Part shown: positions 16,835 to 25,492 of the stretch, in pieces
Layout of the letters: each line of letters opens with the position of its first letter
How positions within the stretch are numbered: position 1 is the first letter of the stretch
Source of the DNA: an archaeon
GTDB lineage: Archaea > Iainarchaeota > Iainarchaeia > Iainarchaeales > 0-14-0-20-34-12
Assembly (NCBI GenBank): GCA_038046645.1
Contig: JBBSVU010000002.1
Location: 34,995 to 79,474 of the forward strand
DNA length: 44,480 bases
Direction: 5' to 3'
The notes under the pieces: model-generated
The model's database searches: none
Told to the model about the DNA's origin: nothing
Seen by the model: only the letters and a program-made list of their open reading frames with translations
Program-made: the position numbers and the translations under genes

Positions 16835-18079
16835 ATGCCGAGAACACCATCAAAGGGAAGATTTAGGCCAAGAAATCCCGCCATGCAGGAGAGAACAATG
16901 GACGTTAGAGAAGCATGGGCAAGGGAGGCTGCAGGGCAGAGAATTCCTAGGGGCGCGTTACTAACTAATTTTCCTTTAATGCCTAATGTATCCCTTACAA
17001 AGATACAAATTACCTTTAATCCAGACGGTTCGGTTGATGTCCCAAGATATGAGGAAACAGAAAAAGGAGGATTAAAGGTTAAAAGAAGGGTCAGAGTAAA
17101 GGATGTTTCTGCATCAGTAAGGCAGGCATGGCATCAGGTAAAAAGCATTGAGGCTGAAATGAAACGATTAGATTCTGTTTATGCTAGGGTTCAGGGTGTG
17201 CATGAAGCTGTTTATAATAATTGGGCCAAATATAATGGTGCCCAAAAAGCTGCTGTTTTGGAGTTTGTTGAAAAGACTGCGAAAATGTTAGAGCCAAGAA
17301 GGAAACCCTCTGAAAGGCATAAGAGAAAAGCTATTGCAAGGTTAAGGTTGGCAAAAGATTTTTTAAAAACTGAAAATCCTAATGCAGCAATTGTTGTTAT
17401 GGTTGGTGCTGCAAATGACTTGGTTGCAAGAAAAAACATTTTAATAAAACAAAAACCTTTCCTGGAACGCAGGGCTAGAAGCATTCAAAGGGAAAAATCA
17501 AAAGAGGATAAAACATTATATGGCGTTCTTGACCGCATATTTAAGATTGATGCAGCATTAACCGGCCCAAGGCCTGCTGATGTTGCAGAACAAGGAAGAA
17601 TTGCTGCAGAATTAAGGACTTTTGCCAAAACCTTGGGTGAAAGAAGTGAAAGGGAATTAAAAAAATGTGCTGCCCTAGTAAGGTCTGCTGCATCTATTCT
17701 TGATGCTGGCAGGGTTAGGGGTTACTTGCCGAAAATCAGGTTAGCAAGAAAGGTTATTGTTGAAACTGCTTCAAAATCAAGCATACTTTACCCAGATAAA
17801 TTAGAATGGTTGGGAAGGCACACAGATTTAATATTTAGAAAACATGTTGTACGAAATCAGCTAAGGTTTTTTGCAGATAATGCCGAATATTGGTTGGGGA
17901 AAGCTAGGCCAGAGCAAGTGCCAAGAATGAAGCAATATTTGGTAAATCTTGCAAATGTCCTTGCGGGTGCAAGGGTTAATTCGCAGCAAGGAATGATTAT
18001 TCAGGCATCATCTTTATTCGGTCAGAAAAAAATTGCCGAATGTGCCGATTTGTTAGAACAGGCTGCAGAAAAATTGTAA
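16835..18079 (+). CDS. Hypothetical Arg/Lys-rich, mostly helical protein
   Basis: 414-aa ORF with its own TATA-like upstream region. No family motif recognised. Confidence 0.8.
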   Translation: MPRTPSKGRFRPRNPAMQERTMDVREAWAREAAGQRIPRGALLTNFPLMPNVSLTKIQITFNPDGSVDVPRYEETEKGGLKVKRRVRVKDVSASVRQAWHQVKSIEAEMKRLDSVYARVQGVHEAVYNNWAKYNGAQKAAVLEFVEKTAKMLEPRRKPSERHKRKAIARLRLAKDFLKTENPNAAIVVMVGAANDLVARKNILIKQKPFLERRARSIQREKSKEDKTLYGVLDRIFKIDAALTGPRPADVAEQGRIAAELRTFAKTLGERSERELKKCAALVRSAASILDAGRVRGYLPKIRLARKVIVETASKSSILYPDKLEWLGRHTDLIFRKHVVRNQLRFFADNAEYWLGKARPEQVPRMKQYLVNLANVLAGARVNSQQGMIIQASSLFGQKKIAECADLLEQAAEKL

Positions 18080-18199: not shown

Positions 18200-19969
18200 A
18201 TGAGTAAATTATGCATAGCGCTAGCTGTCAGCTTTTTGTTTGTTCTAAATTTTGTTTCCGCGGAGATTCAGGCTGAATTAATTTCACCTTTTGGTGGGAC
18301 AATTATTTCAAAAAACCAGGGTAATGAAAATATTCTTTTTTCCTATTTTGATTCAAATGAGTCTGAAAATTTATTCCTGACTTTAGGCTATCATTATCCT
18401 AGCCAGCAATTCTTAGTAAACATTTTGCTTCAAGATGCTGATTTGAAACAATTTTGCCAGGACGAAGATAATAATTCCATTACTTTGCAAAATTGTAGCA
18501 TTGATTTTGATTCTACACAGCTGATTAGCACTCCTATGTTCCTAGATTTGCGGATAAGTGCAGAAAATAGTTCAGCAGAATTAAGCACTGCTGAAATAGT
18601 TATAAATAATACTTATCCAGAGATTATTGAGTATTATCCTGAAGGGAAAACCGATAATTATCAGATTAAATTTACAGTTCAGAGCGCTGATTCAGATATA
18701 GATATTGCGAAACTCAAAGTAATTGTAAATGATGATATTGAAATCCAAAATTGGGCTGAAAAATGCCAAATCTTGGGGAGCGAAAAAACTGTGCACTGCG
18801 AATGGTTTTCAGAATTGGTGGAAGAAGGTGAAAACTTTGTTTATGTTGAATCACACGATATAATTGGAAATGGAAGTTATGCAAGTGCTAAAGAGTGGTT
18901 TTTCATATTTGAAAAACCGCAGGATAAAAATCCGCCAAAGATAAAAATTGATTATCCGGAAAATAATTCCGTGCTTACAACAAATGAGTTTGATATAAAA
19001 TTTTCAGTTTCTGACAATGAAACTGGGATAACTGCAAGTGCATTGTTGCTTGATGGCCAGATGGTTGCTCTCCTCGAGCCGAATTCATCGGCATTGAAAT
19101 TAAGTGCTGAAGAAGGGGATCATAACCTTACCATGCTGGCTTATGATGATGCGCAAAATTATTCAGAATTAACAATAAACTTCAGCATAAAAAAACCAGA
19201 GCCTGAGAACTCGCCTATTGAACTGGAAACACCTAAAAATCCAACAGCAATGCTGGAAACTGAACAGGAAAATCAACCCGTAGGTGGAGAAAGTTTTCCT
19301 TGGTTAAAACGAAATCCAGAGCAAAATGGAATTCTTTCGAGTAACCAACAAGAAATAGGAGTGCAGCAAGCTCCAAAAAACGGGGCAGAGCTTGAAGATG
19401 TAAAACCTATTGAAGTAATTCCGCAGCCAAAAAAGAAGACAGAGAAAAATCAAGCAGGGCAGAAAAAATATGTTGATTTTAATTCAAGCATTAAAAAAAG
19501 CATTGCTGATATGAATATTGAAAAGGAATGCCTGCTTGAATTAATAAGTCCAATCGCTAAATCTGGGACAAATTTATTCAAAATAAAGATATTGCACAAG
19601 GATTCAGGTAAAATCTATAAATCAGCAAAGGCTTTGCTTGTTTCACCTGATAAATTGCTGATTAAAGGCATTGAATGTTTTGAATTGGATGGCAAAATTA
19701 TAGAAGAAGAGGATTATATCATAGATATTATCGGCGGAAAAGGCATTCCAATAGAAAAAACACTGGAGATTGAGGATGAATTTCCTGAAAATTTGGTAAA
19801 AAGCTTGCAATCCTATTTGCCTGTTACAGGGTTTGCAGTGCTTGAAAATAATCTTCCATGGATTTTGCTTATTTTGATTCTAATCCTGCTGGCTGTTGCC
19901 GCTAAGAAAGCATTGGAACGTAAAAAGAAGGATAAAAAGCAGGAGTATGGCTGGCTTGAAGAGCAATAA
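18200..19969 (+). CDS. Membrane-anchored surface protein with Ig-like domains
   Basis: N-terminal signal peptide, acidic beta-rich repeats (PPKIKIDYPENNS...FSVSDNETG), a low-complexity linker, then LPVTG, a TM helix and a basic tail. Confidence 0.82.
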   Translation: MSKLCIALAVSFLFVLNFVSAEIQAELISPFGGTIISKNQGNENILFSYFDSNESENLFLTLGYHYPSQQFLVNILLQDADLKQFCQDEDNNSITLQNCSIDFDSTQLISTPMFLDLRISAENSSAELSTAEIVINNTYPEIIEYYPEGKTDNYQIKFTVQSADSDIDIAKLKVIVNDDIEIQNWAEKCQILGSEKTVHCEWFSELVEEGENFVYVESHDIIGNGSYASAKEWFFIFEKPQDKNPPKIKIDYPENNSVLTTNEFDIKFSVSDNETGITASALLLDGQMVALLEPNSSALKLSAEEGDHNLTMLAYDDAQNYSELTINFSIKKPEPENSPIELETPKNPTAMLETEQENQPVGGESFPWLKRNPEQNGILSSNQQEIGVQQAPKNGAELEDVKPIEVIPQPKKKTEKNQAGQKKYVDFNSSIKKSIADMNIEKECLLELISPIAKSGTNLFKIKILHKDSGKIYKSAKALLVSPDKLLIKGIECFELDGKIIEEEDYIIDIIGGKGIPIEKTLEIEDEFPENLVKSLQSYLPVTGFAVLENNLPWILLILILILLAVAAKKALERKKKDKKQEYGWLEEQ

Positions 19970-20075: not shown

Positions 20076-23060
20076 GTGGTAATACTTCAAGAAATTACTC
20101 TGAAAAACTTCAAGTCATTTGAAAATGTAAAGGTTCCTTTCAAAAAAGGGGTTAGCGCAATTGTAGGGGCAAATGGCTCAGGCAAAAGCAATATCCTAGA
20201 TGCTTTGATGTTTGTTTTGGGCGCTACTGGCTTAAAGCAGTTAAGGGCATCGAAACTTAGCGATTTAATAAACACTAATTCTGTCGAAAATTATTGTAAA
20301 GTAGAATTAAAATTTACGGCAAATGAAAAACAATGGTTAATCAGCAGGATGATTGACAAGAACGGGCATTCCATCGTTAGGATTAATGATGATAGGAAAA
20401 CACTGAACGAAATGGTGTCAATGCTTGCTGAGTTTGGCATGACTAATGATGGTTATAATATACTCACTCAGGGTGAAGTAACTAGGGTAATCGAAAAAAA
20501 CCCGATTGAGCGAAGGCAGATTATTGATAATTTGGCAGGAATAAGGGAATTTGATGAAAAGAAGGAAGAAGCCGAGAAAGAATTGGGCAAGGTAGATGAA
20601 AAAATTAAGGACACAAATATTGTGCTGCATGAACGCGAAAATTATCTTGAAAAATTGAAGTCTGAAAAAGAAGCCGCAATGAAGTTTGATGGATTGAAAT
20701 TGAAAAGGGAGCAAACATTGGCAACAATACTGCATTTGGAACTGCAAAAAACAAACGAAATCATCGAGGAAAGCAAAAGGAATGTCGCAGAGGTTAATTC
20801 GAGGATAGAGGAAAAGAATGCCTTGGTTGAAAAGCTTGTAAAGGAGAGAGAGGAATCAGGAAAAGAAGCTGAAGAATTAAACAAGAAAATGCTTGAACAA
20901 AACCAGCAATTATATTCAGGGTTAGTAGCAGAACTTGAGAGAAAGAAGGCCCAAAGGAGTATGATTGATGAACAGATAAGAAATGCAGAAACCGCAAATG
21001 AAAAAGAAGCACAAAAACACGCAAATTTAAAAGAAAGTGAAGAAAAATTATTCCTGCAAAAGGAAAAGTTTGAAAAACGAGAAGAAGAAATTGAGGATGA
21101 ATTAAAAATTTTTGGGGAAAATGAAGCAAAATTAAAGTTAGAAAAGGCTGGTGCTGAAAAAACTCATGCTGATTTAAAAGGAAAAATTAAGAATATTGAA
21201 AGCGAACTTGCCGCTGCTGAATCTGAACTCGAAGAGTTAAATGAAAAGAAGCACAAGAAAGAAATGGAATTAAATTCAATAGAACGGGAGAATGAAATTG
21301 CATTAAAAAGAATTGAATCCCTGAAAAAAACAGCTAATATTGGCAGAAATGAACTGGTTTCTTTAGAAGCTAGGAGGCAGGAACTTTCAAAACAGATAGC
21401 CGGCAAAGATCTGCACAATGAAATTAAAGCGTTAGAGAATAATATTGAGACTGAAATAGGCAGGGAGAAAGAAATCTTAGCTAATTTGAATCATTTTAAA
21501 AATTCGTTATTAGAATTGGATAAGGTAAGTGCAAAATGCCCGATTTGTGAGAGTGCAATTAATGATGAAAAACGGAATGCACTAAAAGAAAAAAGAAAAA
21601 TCGCTATTAACGAGCATTCCACTTTGCTCGAAACCATCAAGCAGAAAACATTGGCTATGAAAAACGACCTTGAACACAATAGAAAAGCGCTTATTCTGCT
21701 GAATGAACTAAATTTGCTGATTCAAAAAATAGAAGAAAAACATTCTAGATTGCAGTTACTGGAAAAGGAACTGCATGAGCTGAATAATTCTATCAAAGAG
21801 ACTATAAATTTGGAAATTTCAATTGAAGAACTGAAAAAAGACATTGAAAGAGCAAGAAGCAGTAAAACACTTTTAGAATCAAAGATTGATGATTTCCAAA
21901 AAGGCCACATTTATGAAAAATTAAATGCCATTGAAAAGGAATATTCCGAGGTATTGGGCAAAAAACATGTTTTAATGCATGAAAAGAAGACTATCGGGGA
22001 AGAATTATTGCCTAATACAAAAGAGCAATTGAAAAAAACAAAAGAAGAACTAAATGCTTTTGATTCAGAAAATAAGAATTTAACAAAAGATCTGCATGAA
22101 AAGAGTAAATTGCTTGAATCTTTGAAAAAAGAGATAGATAAGGAAGAAGCAAGATTGGAAAAAGAAAAGGAAGCAGCATCAAAAATAGAAAAACAAAGGG
22201 AAGAGATGCTGAAAAAAATTACTTCAATTGAAGAAAGGCTTTCAGGTCTGGAAAAATCGAGCACAAAGCTGATTGCAGACAAGAGCAAGTTTGAGGTAGA
22301 CCAAAATACTTACACAATAAGGCTGAAAGACCTAAAAGAGGAATTTGAGAGATATAAGGAAATTCAGGTATTTGAACATAAGACATTAAAAACACTGAAA
22401 GATGATTTGAAAGACATTGAGCAGGAATTGGCAAAGATAGGCGCAATTAATTTTAAAGCCGCTGAATCCTATGCTGAATTAGAGAAAGAAGTAACTGATG
22501 TTAGGGGCAAGGTAATGAAATTGGAAGAAGAGAAACAGTCAGTGTTAAAGCTGATTGAAAGCATTGATGTCAAGAGAAAAATAGTTTTCATGAATTGCTT
22601 TGAGGTAATTTCAAAGAATTTCAGGGAAATATGCCTAACCTTCTTTGAAAGTGAAGGTTCATTAAAGCTTAGCGATGAAAATGACATATTTAATGCAGGT
22701 TTATTGATTGAGGTGCAGCACAAAGGCAAAAGTATTTTAAGGCTTGATTCTATGAGCGGTGGAGAAAAAGCAATTACTGCACTTGCATTCCTATTCTCAA
22801 TCCTGCTTTACCACAAATCGCCATTCTATGTGTTTGATGAGGCAGATGCTGCTTTGGATAAAGAAAATTCATCCAAAATGGCACGCATTATTGAACGATT
22901 CAGCACAGAAGCGCAGTTTGTGCTTATTACTCATAATGACAGCCTGATTAAGCACGCGAATCAGATAGTTGGGGTTACCTTAAACAAGGATAAATCAAGC
23001 ATTATAGGCCTTAATATAAAACCGAGCCTAGTAAAAGAAGTAGAGGCAGAATCGCCTTAA
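20076..23060 (+). CDS. smc: Smc-family chromosome ATPase with a central CxxC zinc hook instead of a hinge
   Basis: NFKSF, Walker A GANGSGKSNILDA, LRA...DLI, Q-loop TQG, signature MSGGEK, Walker B/D-loop FYVFDEADAALD and QFVLITH. Long coiled coils with CPIC at aa 488-491. Confidence 0.88.
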   Translation: MVILQEITLKNFKSFENVKVPFKKGVSAIVGANGSGKSNILDALMFVLGATGLKQLRASKLSDLINTNSVENYCKVELKFTANEKQWLISRMIDKNGHSIVRINDDRKTLNEMVSMLAEFGMTNDGYNILTQGEVTRVIEKNPIERRQIIDNLAGIREFDEKKEEAEKELGKVDEKIKDTNIVLHERENYLEKLKSEKEAAMKFDGLKLKREQTLATILHLELQKTNEIIEESKRNVAEVNSRIEEKNALVEKLVKEREESGKEAEELNKKMLEQNQQLYSGLVAELERKKAQRSMIDEQIRNAETANEKEAQKHANLKESEEKLFLQKEKFEKREEEIEDELKIFGENEAKLKLEKAGAEKTHADLKGKIKNIESELAAAESELEELNEKKHKKEMELNSIERENEIALKRIESLKKTANIGRNELVSLEARRQELSKQIAGKDLHNEIKALENNIETEIGREKEILANLNHFKNSLLELDKVSAKCPICESAINDEKRNALKEKRKIAINEHSTLLETIKQKTLAMKNDLEHNRKALILLNELNLLIQKIEEKHSRLQLLEKELHELNNSIKETINLEISIEELKKDIERARSSKTLLESKIDDFQKGHIYEKLNAIEKEYSEVLGKKHVLMHEKKTIGEELLPNTKEQLKKTKEELNAFDSENKNLTKDLHEKSKLLESLKKEIDKEEARLEKEKEAASKIEKQREEMLKKITSIEERLSGLEKSSTKLIADKSKFEVDQNTYTIRLKDLKEEFERYKEIQVFEHKTLKTLKDDLKDIEQELAKIGAINFKAAESYAELEKEVTDVRGKVMKLEEEKQSVLKLIESIDVKRKIVFMNCFEVISKNFREICLTFFESEGSLKLSDENDIFNAGLLIEVQHKGKSILRLDSMSGGEKAITALAFLFSILLYHKSPFYVFDEADAALDKENSSKMARIIERFSTEAQFVLITHNDSLIKHANQIVGVTLNKDKSSIIGLNIKPSLVKEVEAESP

Positions 23061-23098: not shown

Positions 23099-25492
23099 TT
23101 ATACAGTTCTCAAATCCCTTGCGGGTTTTTCTTCCTTTGGCTTCTGCTTGTGCTCAACCATCATTTTGTTTATGTCTTTAATTATCTCGGTCTGCTGCTC
23201 AATCTCCTTTGTCAAGCCAGAAATCTTTTCTTTATACGCCTCAATATTTCTTTCATAATCTTCCCTAGTTATTTCCCCTCTCTTAAACTGGTGTTTTAAA
23301 TCCCTGATTAGATGCTGCGAAGCATATAATTCAGCCTTTACCCTGTCAACCTCAACAACATGTTTGGATGTTTCAGCCCTTCCTTCAAGCAAATCCTTCA
23401 ATTCCTGTTTATATCTTTCGCTTACTGCTTCATAATGTTTCATATTTATTGTTCCTGAAACAAGTGAGTCATCTAATTTGTGCTGCATCTTTTTAATTTC
23501 TTCAATCCTGCTGGTGATTGAAACCTTTGGTTTTGCCTCGGGCAATTGCAAGTGCAGCTTTGCCCTGTACATGTAAACCAAAAGTGCAAGTATTACTAAG
23601 ATGAGAATAATTATTACTGAGATTAAAACATAATCAAGATTTATTGTGCCTGTGTTATTTGTCAGCACTGAAGAACCATTATCTGGTTCTGTTGATGGCA
23701 TAACATTAGAATTAGGCATTGCACCAATCTTTTCATAAGCCGAATTCATCACATCATGCACTTCAGTAGCCATAAAAATTAAAGTAACGCCGCTTAAGGC
23801 CATCTCCTTTGCTTTTCCTATGCTGTTTTTATCTTCATAGAATTTTGCTGCCTTGAGGAAATAATTTGCATGGTCTAAATACAAGCGAGCCCATACAAAC
23901 GGATAATTACTTTTTGAAATATCTGAATTAAGCGAATTTATTTTTTTATCCAATATGTCAATTAACTGGCCTACAGATTTCCCTTCTATTGTTGCTTCTC
24001 CCTGTGCCAAGCCATATGCTGAAGCAGCATCCAATGCGCTGCTTAAATTCCAGGACTGTGCTTTTTCAACACTGCTTGCATTTATTCTCCTTAGTATGTC
24101 TTCTCCCTTTGACTCTTCATTAAGTATTGAGATTACATCCTCTGCTTTTACCTGATACTGGTCAGCCAAATCCCCAAATTTATCTGAAATATCTGCATAT
24201 GGGCCTGTGCCTAATGAGAATGTATAAAGATTTTTTGCAATATTAAGCCATTGCTTTGCATATTCGTAATCCAATATATTTGATATTGCCATGCTTTTTA
24301 CATCAAGGATATCGCCTTCAATGGTTATCTGCTGCCCCTGCTTTAATTGTTCAATATTCATTTTGGCCCAAATCAATCTTTCCTGTGCAGATATCTGCCA
24401 TTCAAACAATTCCTTGGAAACAGGGTTGTTAAGCTTTTTTTCAAGTTTAACCAAATCTTCTTCAAGTGAATTTATTTTGCTATTTAATAACTTTGAATTT
24501 ATTTCCATTAATGATGGGTTTGTGACAATATCCTCGACCAAAGAAGCATTCACCAAAGCCAAAAAAGCATAATTTGCTGCAGAATAAAGATAATTCTGCC
24601 CAAGCAGGTTCTTTGCATCCTCGATTGTTTTTTCGGAACTGTTCAGTGAAGACATTAATGCGTTCAAAAGTTCTGAATCCTGCAAAATAGTGTTTGAGAG
24701 CGAGCCTTTCGCAGACTTCAGCTTTTCCTGCGCTTCATTCACATATTCATCCGTGAATTCCTTCATCGGATTTAATTTTTCATTCAATGGAATTGATTCT
24801 GGAATAAAATTAGGCAAATCCTCCTTAACAAATTGGCTTGGGTCAATTGTATTCAAATCAACAAACGCATATTTTAACATGTCATCTATTGACCTTACCT
24901 CAATTATCTTGATGCCCCATTCAGCATATGCATACTCCCTCAAATCTACTGTTTTGATTGAATTATCCGGGAATTGCTGTGTTTGTATGGATTCCCCTTC
25001 AGGGATGAAGAATAATTTGATGCCTACTTCTGCTGCTTTTTTTGCCTTTGCAAATACCCCTCCAACCGCACTGACATAACCGTCATTGTCCAGGGTGCCT
25101 GTTGCTGAAACATATTCTGGCAATTTGGCATCTGTCAAGCAGCTCACAGTCAGCAGGCCCATTGCAGCGCCTGCTGATGGCCCCTCAACAATTGATGCAT
25201 CTGAATTAATATCGAAGAAATAATTGTATTTGTCAACATCCTTGAAGTAGTTTTTGGAAACTTCAACTGCACTTTTTTCTGTATTTTGGGTGCTTGTCCC
25301 TACAAGTGATTCCACTAAGCTGTAAACCTTTCCTGTGCCTGGTTTTAGCTCAAGTGATAAATCTGCCTTTATTGCACCGCCATTACCGGTTATTACCGCA
25401 AATATCGGCATTGAGCATTTTTCAATGACTGCAAAATTGACTGGAATCAAAAAAACCAAAAATAGGACAAACATTAACTTAATCTTGTTCAT
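23099..25492 (-). CDS. Membrane-anchored archaeal S16 (Lon-like) serine protease
   Basis: Signal peptide, GPSAG catalytic Ser, ATGT...VGGVFAK catalytic Lys, no AAA+ module, one TM helix and a cytoplasmic coiled tail. Confidence 0.88.
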   Translation of the reverse strand: MNKIKLMFVLFLVFLIPVNFAVIEKCSMPIFAVITGNGGAIKADLSLELKPGTGKVYSLVESLVGTSTQNTEKSAVEVSKNYFKDVDKYNYFFDINSDASIVEGPSAGAAMGLLTVSCLTDAKLPEYVSATGTLDNDGYVSAVGGVFAKAKKAAEVGIKLFFIPEGESIQTQQFPDNSIKTVDLREYAYAEWGIKIIEVRSIDDMLKYAFVDLNTIDPSQFVKEDLPNFIPESIPLNEKLNPMKEFTDEYVNEAQEKLKSAKGSLSNTILQDSELLNALMSSLNSSEKTIEDAKNLLGQNYLYSAANYAFLALVNASLVEDIVTNPSLMEINSKLLNSKINSLEEDLVKLEKKLNNPVSKELFEWQISAQERLIWAKMNIEQLKQGQQITIEGDILDVKSMAISNILDYEYAKQWLNIAKNLYTFSLGTGPYADISDKFGDLADQYQVKAEDVISILNEESKGEDILRRINASSVEKAQSWNLSSALDAASAYGLAQGEATIEGKSVGQLIDILDKKINSLNSDISKSNYPFVWARLYLDHANYFLKAAKFYEDKNSIGKAKEMALSGVTLIFMATEVHDVMNSAYEKIGAMPNSNVMPSTEPDNGSSVLTNNTGTINLDYVLISVIIILILVILALLVYMYRAKLHLQLPEAKPKVSITSRIEEIKKMQHKLDDSLVSGTINMKHYEAVSERYKQELKDLLEGRAETSKHVVEVDRVKAELYASQHLIRDLKHQFKRGEITREDYERNIEAYKEKISGLTKEIEQQTEIIKDINKMMVEHKQKPKEEKPARDLRTV

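Follow-up and report, generated by a model that had tools for sequence, protein, structure and literature searches.

An archaeal Smc protein without a hinge and with a Rad50-type zinc-hook sequence at the apex of its coiled coil

We analysed a stretch of 44,480 nucleotides (the window) from an archaeon of the order Iainarchaeales (GenBank assembly GCA_038046645.1, contig JBBSVU010000002.1, positions 34,995 to 79,474 of the forward strand), with a G+C content of 29-39%. The genome to which it belongs comprises 1.17 Mb in 25 contigs and is 89.2% complete. At 20076..23060 on the forward strand the window carries an open reading frame that starts with GTG and, by the list of reading frames and its translation, encodes 994 residues followed by a stop codon. 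An earlier interpretation made from the letters alone (the sequence-only reading) had proposed that this protein joins condensin-type Smc heads by a Rad50-like zinc hook instead of a hinge. Our analysis makes it highly probable that the protein is the organism's Smc, the ATPase of an Smc-ScpA-ScpB condensin, in which a Rad50-type zinc hook stands in for the hinge.

All features of the gene lie on the forward strand. The N-terminal half of the ATPase head (20076..20540, residues 1-155) was delimited by invariant residues, the strand and helix pattern of a structural model and Smc-head relatives in the PDB. It contains NFKSF (residues 11-15), GANGSGKSNILDALMFVLG (31-49), which includes the Walker A motif GANGSGKS (residues 31-38, 20166-20189; G31, N33, G36 and K37 invariant in 34 orthologues), LRASKLSDLI (56-65) and the Q-loop Q132, invariant in the same orthologues. 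The ascending coiled-coil arm (20541..21521, residues 156-482; model helices 156-226, 230-441 and 446-482) leads to an apex turn with CPIC (21522..21563, residues 483-496), the only long non-helical stretch in the arm. The descending arm follows at 21564..22565 (residues 497 to about 830; model helices 497-608, 611-759 and onward), with GAINFKAAESY from residue 789. The C-terminal half of the head (22566..23057, residues 831-994) matches the Smc C-heads 5xns, 1xew_Y and 3kta_B of the PDB and carries the signature SGGEK (894-898, 22755-22769; S894, G896 and E897 invariant in the 34 orthologues), PFYVFDEADAALD (916-928) and QFVLITHND (947-955) with the invariant H-loop H953. Walker B and the D-loop together form FYVFDEADAALD (917-928, 22824-22859; D921, E922 and D928 invariant), FYVFDE (917-922) being the former and ADAALD (923-928) the latter. 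The ATPase motif set is intact, with Walker A, Q-loop, signature, Walker B, D-loop and H-loop all present, and every Smc-specific motif that the sequence-only reading quoted is found in the translation.

The 994-residue protein descends from Smc, and not from Rad50 or from the archaeal ASRP family (ClsN/coalescin, Sph1/Sph2). The NCBIfam model of archaeal Smc, TIGR02169, matched with 494.6 bits and aligned residues 5-482 to profile positions 3-483, and TIGR02168 matched with 407.4 bits and aligned residues 492-971 to positions 692-1170; as positions from about 484 to 691, the hinge part, were alone skipped, both arms and both head halves are collinear with Smc. In the Pfam scan SMC_N gave one match of 131.3 bits over residues 4-973. 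Among all PDB sequences the best relatives were prokaryotic Smc heads (5xei, 297 bits; 5xns, 261 bits; and 4i99, an Smc head bound to ScpA, 237 bits), ahead of eukaryotic SMC1-4 (at most 126 bits) and Rad50 (at most 82 bits). An AlphaFold2 model from the 34 orthologues (mean predicted local distance difference test score, pLDDT, 77.5; predicted template modelling score, pTM, 0.43) returned condensin Smc4, Smc5/6 and an archaeal Smc head with joint as top matches in Foldseek.

To place the heads we used a maximum-likelihood tree of 114 rows (LG+G4, a single-matrix model, quick search, support by the Shimodaira-Hasegawa approximate likelihood-ratio test, SH-aLRT). Walker A and B served as anchors for each row, which held about 165 N-terminal and about 157 C-terminal residues, and the root was set on Rad50 and ASRP. 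The tree omits 63 of the 97 unnamed representatives, the 34 best-scoring ones having been kept, as well as proteins that were cut, carried an intein or contained X. Outside SMC were three haloarchaeal ASRPs (support 100, starred) and nine Rad50 rows (97, starred), consisting of two haloarchaeal Rad50 proteins and seven Rad50-like proteins of the order, that of the source genome among them. All 35 hook-bearing rows fell within SMC. The clade of the window protein comprised 43 rows (99, starred) and adjoined hinge-bearing Smc of sister orders in the same class (L127 and L128; support 86), and the hook clade with its hinge-bearing neighbours sat in a group of 66 rows (96, starred). At the base of the hook clade stood P0038, a hinge-bearing protein of 1012 residues with its hinge at 434-548. 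The hook Smc is an Smc-derived variant and not a canonical member, because it lacks the hinge. The sequence-only reading had named Sulfolobus coalescin as a hinge-less precedent; coalescin is itself reported to carry a zinc hook (Yoshinaga 2022, PMC9389158; this and the other cited papers are represented here by parts of their texts), which makes the phylogeny of the heads the decisive test. They group with Smc, and not with Rad50 or the hook-bearing ASRP/ClsN proteins.

These results bear directly on two other assignments. If the protein were a double-strand-break repair ATPase of the Rad50/SbcC family with somewhat Smc-like heads, its hinge-less coiled coil with a CxxC hook at the apex and its match to the Rad50_zn_hook model would be readily understood; yet Rad50 models gave at most about 100 bits against 494.6 for Smc, Rad50 heads in the PDB at most 82 bits against 297, the tree separates the protein from all nine Rad50 rows, that of its own genome included, and no nuclease gene is adjacent. 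We consider this assignment exceedingly improbable, and Rad50 identity was rejected on family scores, PDB ranking and the head tree. Equally far-fetched is that the protein belongs to the ASRPs, which are archaeal, hinge-less and hook-bearing, as it is, and are described as SMC-superfamily proteins with a zinc hook instead of a hinge (Yoshinaga 2022, PMC9389158). The ASRP model NF045487, however, scored 113.1 bits with a cut-off of 300, and real haloarchaeal ASRPs reach 680-699 bits. In the examples retrieved, these ASRPs differ from the window protein: their open frames are shorter (651-679 residues), with CWTC and a degenerate P-loop (Walker A), and they form a distant clade of their own. 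ASRP/ClsN identity was rejected on the NF045487 score, the head tree and the haloarchaeal ASRP sequences.

The apex carries KCPICES (residues 487-493, 21534-21554), with Cys488 at 21537-21539 and Cys491 at 21546-21548, exactly where the sequence-only reading had put it. In the AlphaFold2 model residues 156-759 are predicted to be helical save for three short kinks and a single turn of 14 residues, 483-496, which holds CPIC. Of the 34 hook-bearing orthologues in the apex alignment three are near-identical to the query, and the others share 26-39% identity with it. All 34 keep C488, P489 and C491, as the sequence-only reading required of orthologues, and these are the sole invariant positions between residues 202 and 751; such invariance across divergent orthologues goes far beyond chance. 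Each hook-bearing protein listed has a single CxxC, the CPxC, at its midpoint. We read it directly in 46 genes of the order, two sets of 22 and 24 colinear loci, all of which had one central C[PL]xC (CLVC in one, CP[VTIL]C in the others).

The likeness to Rad50 extends beyond the cysteines. We made an apex-only profile of 45 residues on either side of the hook from 46 distinct loci (alignment A3) and compared it with all PDB sequences. The first match was the Pyrococcus furiosus Rad50 hook 1l8d (E 3.6e-13, 52.8 bits) and the second 6zff, also a P. furiosus Rad50 zinc hook (8.6e-13), and in both cases the alignment spans 89 residues and keeps CPVC in register. Third came the human RAD50 hook 5gox (0.0028), and all else had E > 0.01. 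Short-arm hook Smc proteins outside the training set scored 45-50 bits and six of the order's seven Rad50-like proteins 20.6-33.7 bits, the seventh having no significant score; among the rows listed, haloarchaeal Rad50 gave about 10 bits, ASRPs at most 8, and canonical SMC and hook-less relatives at most 6.7. This pattern of scores indicates a match to the hook itself and not to coiled-coil composition. In addition, 44 of the 46 apex fragments matched Rad50_zn_hook (PF04423) at E <= 0.01, and at least 38 of the 150 order-wide matches listed above its cut-off fall in Smc genes by comparison of coordinates. The sequence-only reading had expected SMC_N and Rad50_zn_hook without SMC_hinge from a Pfam scan; SMC_N was found and SMC_hinge (PF06470) was absent, but Rad50_zn_hook, which gave no match at default thresholds, reached only 20.1 bits at the site (21486-21593 of the window), under the cut-off of 24.3. 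Orthologues P0013 and P0062 exceed that cut-off with 29.4 and 30.7 bits. Judged by its sequence the apex is a Rad50-type hook, and it would be expected to bind zinc and to dimerise. As to whether the co-resident Rad50-like gene was the donor, the apex profile scores the P. furiosus hook higher (52.8 bits) than the order's own Rad50-like hooks (20.6-33.7 bits in six of seven), the fragments compared being short. Of the two terms offered by the sequence-only reading, chimeric fits the 89-residue collinearity of the apex with the hook of P. furiosus Rad50; intermediate does not, as the protein is derived and nests among hinge-bearing Smc, with sister orders that keep the hinge.

A true Smc orthologue could also use CPxC for something other than an intermolecular zinc hook, for example as a stabiliser of the turn within one chain, as a site for another metal or as a redox-sensitive disulfide, the dimer being held by contacts between arms and between heads and kleisin. 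The hook of the window protein lies below the Pfam cut-off, and relatives of the same clade that have neither hinge nor cysteines keep intact heads, both of which this alternative would accommodate. It explains less well that the apex profile is collinear with a solved Rad50 hook over 89 residues, well beyond the CxxC, and that C, P and C are invariant though the rest of the arm drifts. Moreover, two cysteines per chain are insufficient alone for a tetrahedral site, a piece of Rad50 hook logic that reportedly goes back to Hopfner in 2002. We regard such a use of CPxC as unlikely.

The hinge is missing from the genome as well as from the protein. A six-frame search of the whole source genome found none, which agrees with the sequence-only reading of a 994-residue protein without a hinge. 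Of 196 genomes of the order only two contained SMC_hinge, and of its 55 high-quality genomes none did; one of the two hinges (G008) is encoded in a short-armed gene that a contig end truncates, and the other (G156) lies on a small contig in a genome that also has a colinear hook-type gene. Among the 201 genomes of the phylum that were sampled, the hinge was otherwise found in 17 of 19 genomes of five families outside the order, all of the same class, in open frames of 704-1787 residues, mostly about 1110-1180. The window Smc was matched at E <= 1e-30 in 181 of the 196 genomes (53 of the 55 high-quality ones), and in 119 of the 196, by manual count of the table, one alignment covered at least residues 132 to 884. 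Such a single continuous alignment leaves no room for a hinge, and an assembly artefact or a truncation was rejected on the same 119 genomes.

When 1.84 billion representatives were searched exhaustively, 27,539 matches were obtained; the best 42 or so were mostly short forms and the lower-ranked ones mostly proteins of 1100-1200 residues that matched in two stretches. Of 152 proteins (151 of these matches and one more relative), 38, the query included, had C[PL]xC. A search of the genome contigs with the head motifs returned mostly canonical SMC, with L045 the sole hook-type locus. In the records that we saw, public databases name such proteins only 'AAA family ATPase'. Some Smc frames of the order, of about 1086-1576 residues (L028/G017, L034/G026, L042/G027; G123, G125, G128, G134) begin their match at residue 37, just past the Walker A lysine. 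In P0036 (1548 residues) an intein splicing domain with a LAGLIDADG homing endonuclease is inserted just past that lysine, and the canonical mini-SMC proteins P0106 and P0144 carry an intein at the same position.

The arms are at the canonical Smc value in length. From Walker A to the first cysteine there are 450-460 residues, and from the second cysteine to Walker B 421-432, in 57 of 62 distinct hook-bearing sequences, the arm sequence itself being barely conserved. This poor conservation is the reason why a search with the middle of the coiled coil (380-620) returned only two close relatives. Four short hook forms have 346-364 and 324-342 residues in these two intervals, so that their N strand is about 93-111 residues shorter than in the main class and their C strand 88-106 residues shorter, and one sequence is intermediate (431 and 406). 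Side by side with these are 11 natural 'mini-Smc' proteins of about 800-840 residues (P0053, P0058, P0060, P0074, P0075, P0077, P0087, P0089, P0094, P0138 and P0142), with an intact hinge at about 340-470 and arms shorter than canonical by about 150-170 residues per strand; the six that were placed in the tree (P0053, P0058, P0060, P0074, P0075 and P0077) form a group of their own (98, starred).

ScpA and ScpB are both encoded in the source genome, about 1.8 kb apart on contig C16. Across the order ScpA was found in 180 and ScpB in 173 of the 196 genomes, and each in 55 of the 55 high-quality ones. The window protein is the only Smc-type protein found in its genome, which also has a separate Rad50-like ATPase of 790 residues on contig C6 (L012:5051-7423, reverse strand), with Walker A GKMGSGKT, DEPTHNLD and a central CPIC of its own. 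A genome search for ScpA and a separate Rad50, as the sequence-only reading had suggested, found ScpA and this Rad50-like gene. Rad50 models scored 157-190 bits on the C6 protein, all far under their cut-offs (best 189.7 against 700), and arcadin-4 scored 142 bits. No recognisable nuclease gene or Mre11 lies beside the C6 gene, whose overlapping downstream frame of 213 residues has no family match. Hook-bearing frames of about 680-810 residues akin to the C6 protein recur across the order.

The partners speak to a further possibility, that the Smc-derived protein has changed its job, for example to DNA repair or defence, and no longer works with ScpAB, which would then be a relic or serve another partner. 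The gene is not beside scpA or scpB, a hook is otherwise typical of repair proteins and NCBI names the protein merely 'AAA family ATPase', all of which would fit. Against it stand the facts that no other Smc-type protein was found in the genome, that every high-quality genome of this hinge-lacking order has kept ScpA and ScpB, that the arms have the canonical length, and that a separate Rad50-like gene is already present. We consider a changed job very unlikely, and favour the reading of the protein as the Smc of an Smc-ScpA-ScpB condensin.

Among the window neighbours scanned, none of mre11, herA, nurA, scpA and scpB lies beside smc, as the sequence-only reading had observed, and none matched a nuclease or phosphoesterase family; no genome-wide search for Mre11 was made. 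None of the adjacent genes is functionally linked to smc. Upstream, on the same strand, are a 414-residue protein without a Pfam or NCBIfam match (16835-18079) and a 589-residue protein with only a bacterial Ig domain, Big_7 (18200-19969). Downstream and convergent with smc, a protein of 797 residues (23099-25492, reverse strand) has only a Lon_C proteolytic domain (90-184) and a weak SHOCT near its C-terminus, and the Pfam and NCBIfam scan detected no AAA+ ATPase domain in it. Cut frames similar in size to this gene, and possibly representing it, are present at the same relative position in many related loci. Other neighbours scanned included GatE, the ribosomal proteins L11, L1 and L10P, Spt5/NGN and FtsZ, which mark the source as archaeal.

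The apex varies within the clade and outside it. Ten close relatives (905-949 residues) have neither a Pfam hinge nor a CxxC, and their heads are nearly the same; their apex aligns as a short, gap-rich stretch without cysteines. Nine of the ten are scattered within the hook clade, where the starred branches force at least four changes of state, and by sequence the hook seems to have been lost repeatedly. The hook-less, hinge-less Smc orthologues, which together span 901-954 residues in length, are P0018, P0025, P0029, P0030, P0033, P0034, P0039, P0040 and P0042 and the loci L039, L043, L176, L177 and L178. In family f3 (L173/G004 and L174/G035, frames of 1084 residues) and family f31 (L175/G032, a frame of 938 residues) a short non-coiled segment lies at the midpoint of the arm. 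This segment may represent a hinge that has degenerated or an apex domain of a new kind; no Pfam model matched these apex mini-domains even at E <= 5. In family f31 ScpB was detected in none of seven genomes and ScpA in three of them.

A second pair of hook proteins, P0137 and P0149 (951-954 residues), groups with canonical Smc of Nanoarchaeota and Woesearchaeota records (100, starred). Their apex resembles that of the main clade weakly, with 16.5 and 6.5 bits on the apex profile. Enforcing a single hook clade costs 81.5 log-likelihood units, with a p value of 0.023 in the approximately unbiased (AU) test for a group that was defined post hoc; as it was defined after the tree had been seen, the test favours two origins and is no proof. 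The second hook lineage, on this evidence, is probably independent in origin.

Compared with canonical Smc (TIGR02169/TIGR02168; SMC_N with SMC_hinge; Pyrococcus heads 5xei, 5xns and 4i99), the window protein has the same heads, ATPase motifs, arm length and profile collinearity, and ScpA and ScpB in the genome, but a CPxC turn of 14 residues where canonical Smc has a hinge part of about 200 positions. With Rad50/SbcC (PF04423; 1l8d, 6zff, 5gox) it shares the CPxC at an antiparallel apex and a likeness of about 40 residues on each side, whereas its heads and arms are not of Rad50 type and no Mre11 is adjacent. The closest precedent is engineered: in Bacillus subtilis Smc(Zh) the P. furiosus Rad50 hook stands in place of the Smc hinge and growth is normal (Burmann 2017, PMC5344682). 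The architecture is the same as that of the natural hook Smc. The natural junction, 482/492 (profile 483/692), is close to that of the construct smc(1-480, Zh, 691-1186) in the strain table of that paper, and the hook grafted there is 1l8d, also the best PDB match of the natural apex profile. The window protein differs in being natural, archaeal, order-wide and apparently the sole Smc, with a function that we infer. B. subtilis Smc accepts discrete arm lengths only, the wild type with 344 residues and a second functional window at 253-267, and the bimodal pattern held for Smc(Zh) too (Burmann 2017, PMC5344682). Smc(Zh) and the natural hook Smc both show discrete arm-length classes, and the natural classes fit the published windows qualitatively, the two measures of arm length not being identical. 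The converse exchange, Schizosaccharomyces pombe Rad50 with a MukB hinge, has also been engineered (Tatebe 2020, PMC6969161).

In bacteria a marine 'hinge-less' SMC cluster without CXXC, affiliated with Actinobacteria, has been described (Sussfeld 2025, PMC12153180); it shares the natural loss of the hinge within an SMC clade and resembles the hook-less relatives found here, not the window protein. A survey of 512 archaeal SMC homologues refers to DPANN and to no hook, and the word 'zinc' is absent from its text (Yoshinaga and Inagaki 2021, PMC8665677). SMC sequences have been gathered with hinge alignments as queries (Burmann 2017, PMC5344682), by which a hook Smc would be missed. Archaeal Smc complexes have been argued to lack ScpB (Jeon 2020, PMC7055376), whereas ScpB is present in this genome. 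We found no description of a natural zinc-hook Smc in the full text, supplements excluded, of open-licence PMC papers and bioRxiv preprints, and an earlier mention elsewhere is possible. In this literature, prior support for a hinge-to-hook exchange came from engineered chimeras only, namely Smc(Zh) and Rad50 with the MukB hinge.

Several observations weigh against the view that the protein is the Smc of the organism with a hook for a hinge. The curated NCBIfam cut-offs for Smc were missed (494.6 against 729.4 bits for TIGR02169 and 407.4 against 567.35 for TIGR02168), as is expected because about 200 profile positions are missing. The hook of the window protein itself reached 20.1-20.9 bits, below the Pfam cut-off of 24.3. 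Confidence in the structural model is moderate, with a pLDDT near the apex of about 57-61. No Smc match at E <= 1e-30 was obtained in 15 of the 196 genomes, among them that of the same-genus G001 (74% complete). The high-quality genomes G024 and G028 (95-96% complete) have ScpA and ScpB and no Smc match at that threshold, the gene there being either unassembled or far more divergent. The source genome is 89% complete, and a second, hinge-bearing Smc is formally possible. Relatives of the same clade that have neither hinge nor CxxC show that some lineages do without the hook, and this makes it less certain that dimerisation depends on the hook alone. Finally, the support for zinc, for dimerisation and for ScpA binding is indirect. 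A predicted complex of two apex copies (430-550, alignment A2) with zinc, in a run free of controls, scored 0.12 against a mark of 0.42 and carries no weight on either side.

The sequences show the Smc origin of heads and arms, the architecture, the conserved apex and the joint retention of ScpA and ScpB. From what is established for Rad50 hooks and for Smc-ScpAB, and from the engineered precedent, we infer that the hook binds zinc and dimerises the protein, that ScpA binds to it and that the complex entraps DNA or extrudes loops. Each chain would fold back into an antiparallel coiled coil of about 325-335 residues, some 48 nm long if the usual rise of about 0.15 nm per residue is assumed, and the ABC-ATPase head and the CPIC turn would come to lie at opposite ends. 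At the apex one Zn2+ ion, bound by four cysteines (Cys488 and Cys491 of each chain), would hold two chains together as in Rad50, so that the hook would take over the constitutive dimerisation of the hinge. The heads would engage on ATP, the kleisin ScpA with ScpB would bridge them, and the ring closed in this way would hold and translocate DNA, the arm of tightly conserved length transmitting the ATPase cycle.

More broadly, an order of DPANN archaea and at least one lineage near Woesearchaeota/Nanoarchaeota may run their only Smc-ScpAB hinge-free, the apex having come from a Rad50-type gene in at least two independent recombination events, and the hook having since decayed in several families to a plain coiled-coil turn or an unrecognised mini-domain. 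We put this forward tentatively, with somewhat less than even confidence.

SMC proteins are routinely defined in part by their hinge, for which a role in binding DNA or as a gate has been proposed. A natural exchange across an order, retained together with ScpA and ScpB, would show that evolution accepts replacement of the hinge. Surveys of Smc that rely on the hinge or on the curated threshold miss the hook Smc, as it is named 'AAA family ATPase' and falls under that threshold, and they may score these lineages as lacking Smc. The hook Smc offers a ready minimal Smc for structural and single-molecule work on the need for a hinge in loop extrusion, a natural set of arm-length data with two discrete classes about 90-110 residues apart per strand, and a series of apexes in one clade, namely hinge, hook, neither and mini-domain. 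If an order-wide, hinge-free Smc-ScpAB is true, contacts between hinge and DNA would be unneeded for SMC function in nature, and the arm would be the indispensable mechanical element, whereas apex dimerisation might be dispensable or replaceable.

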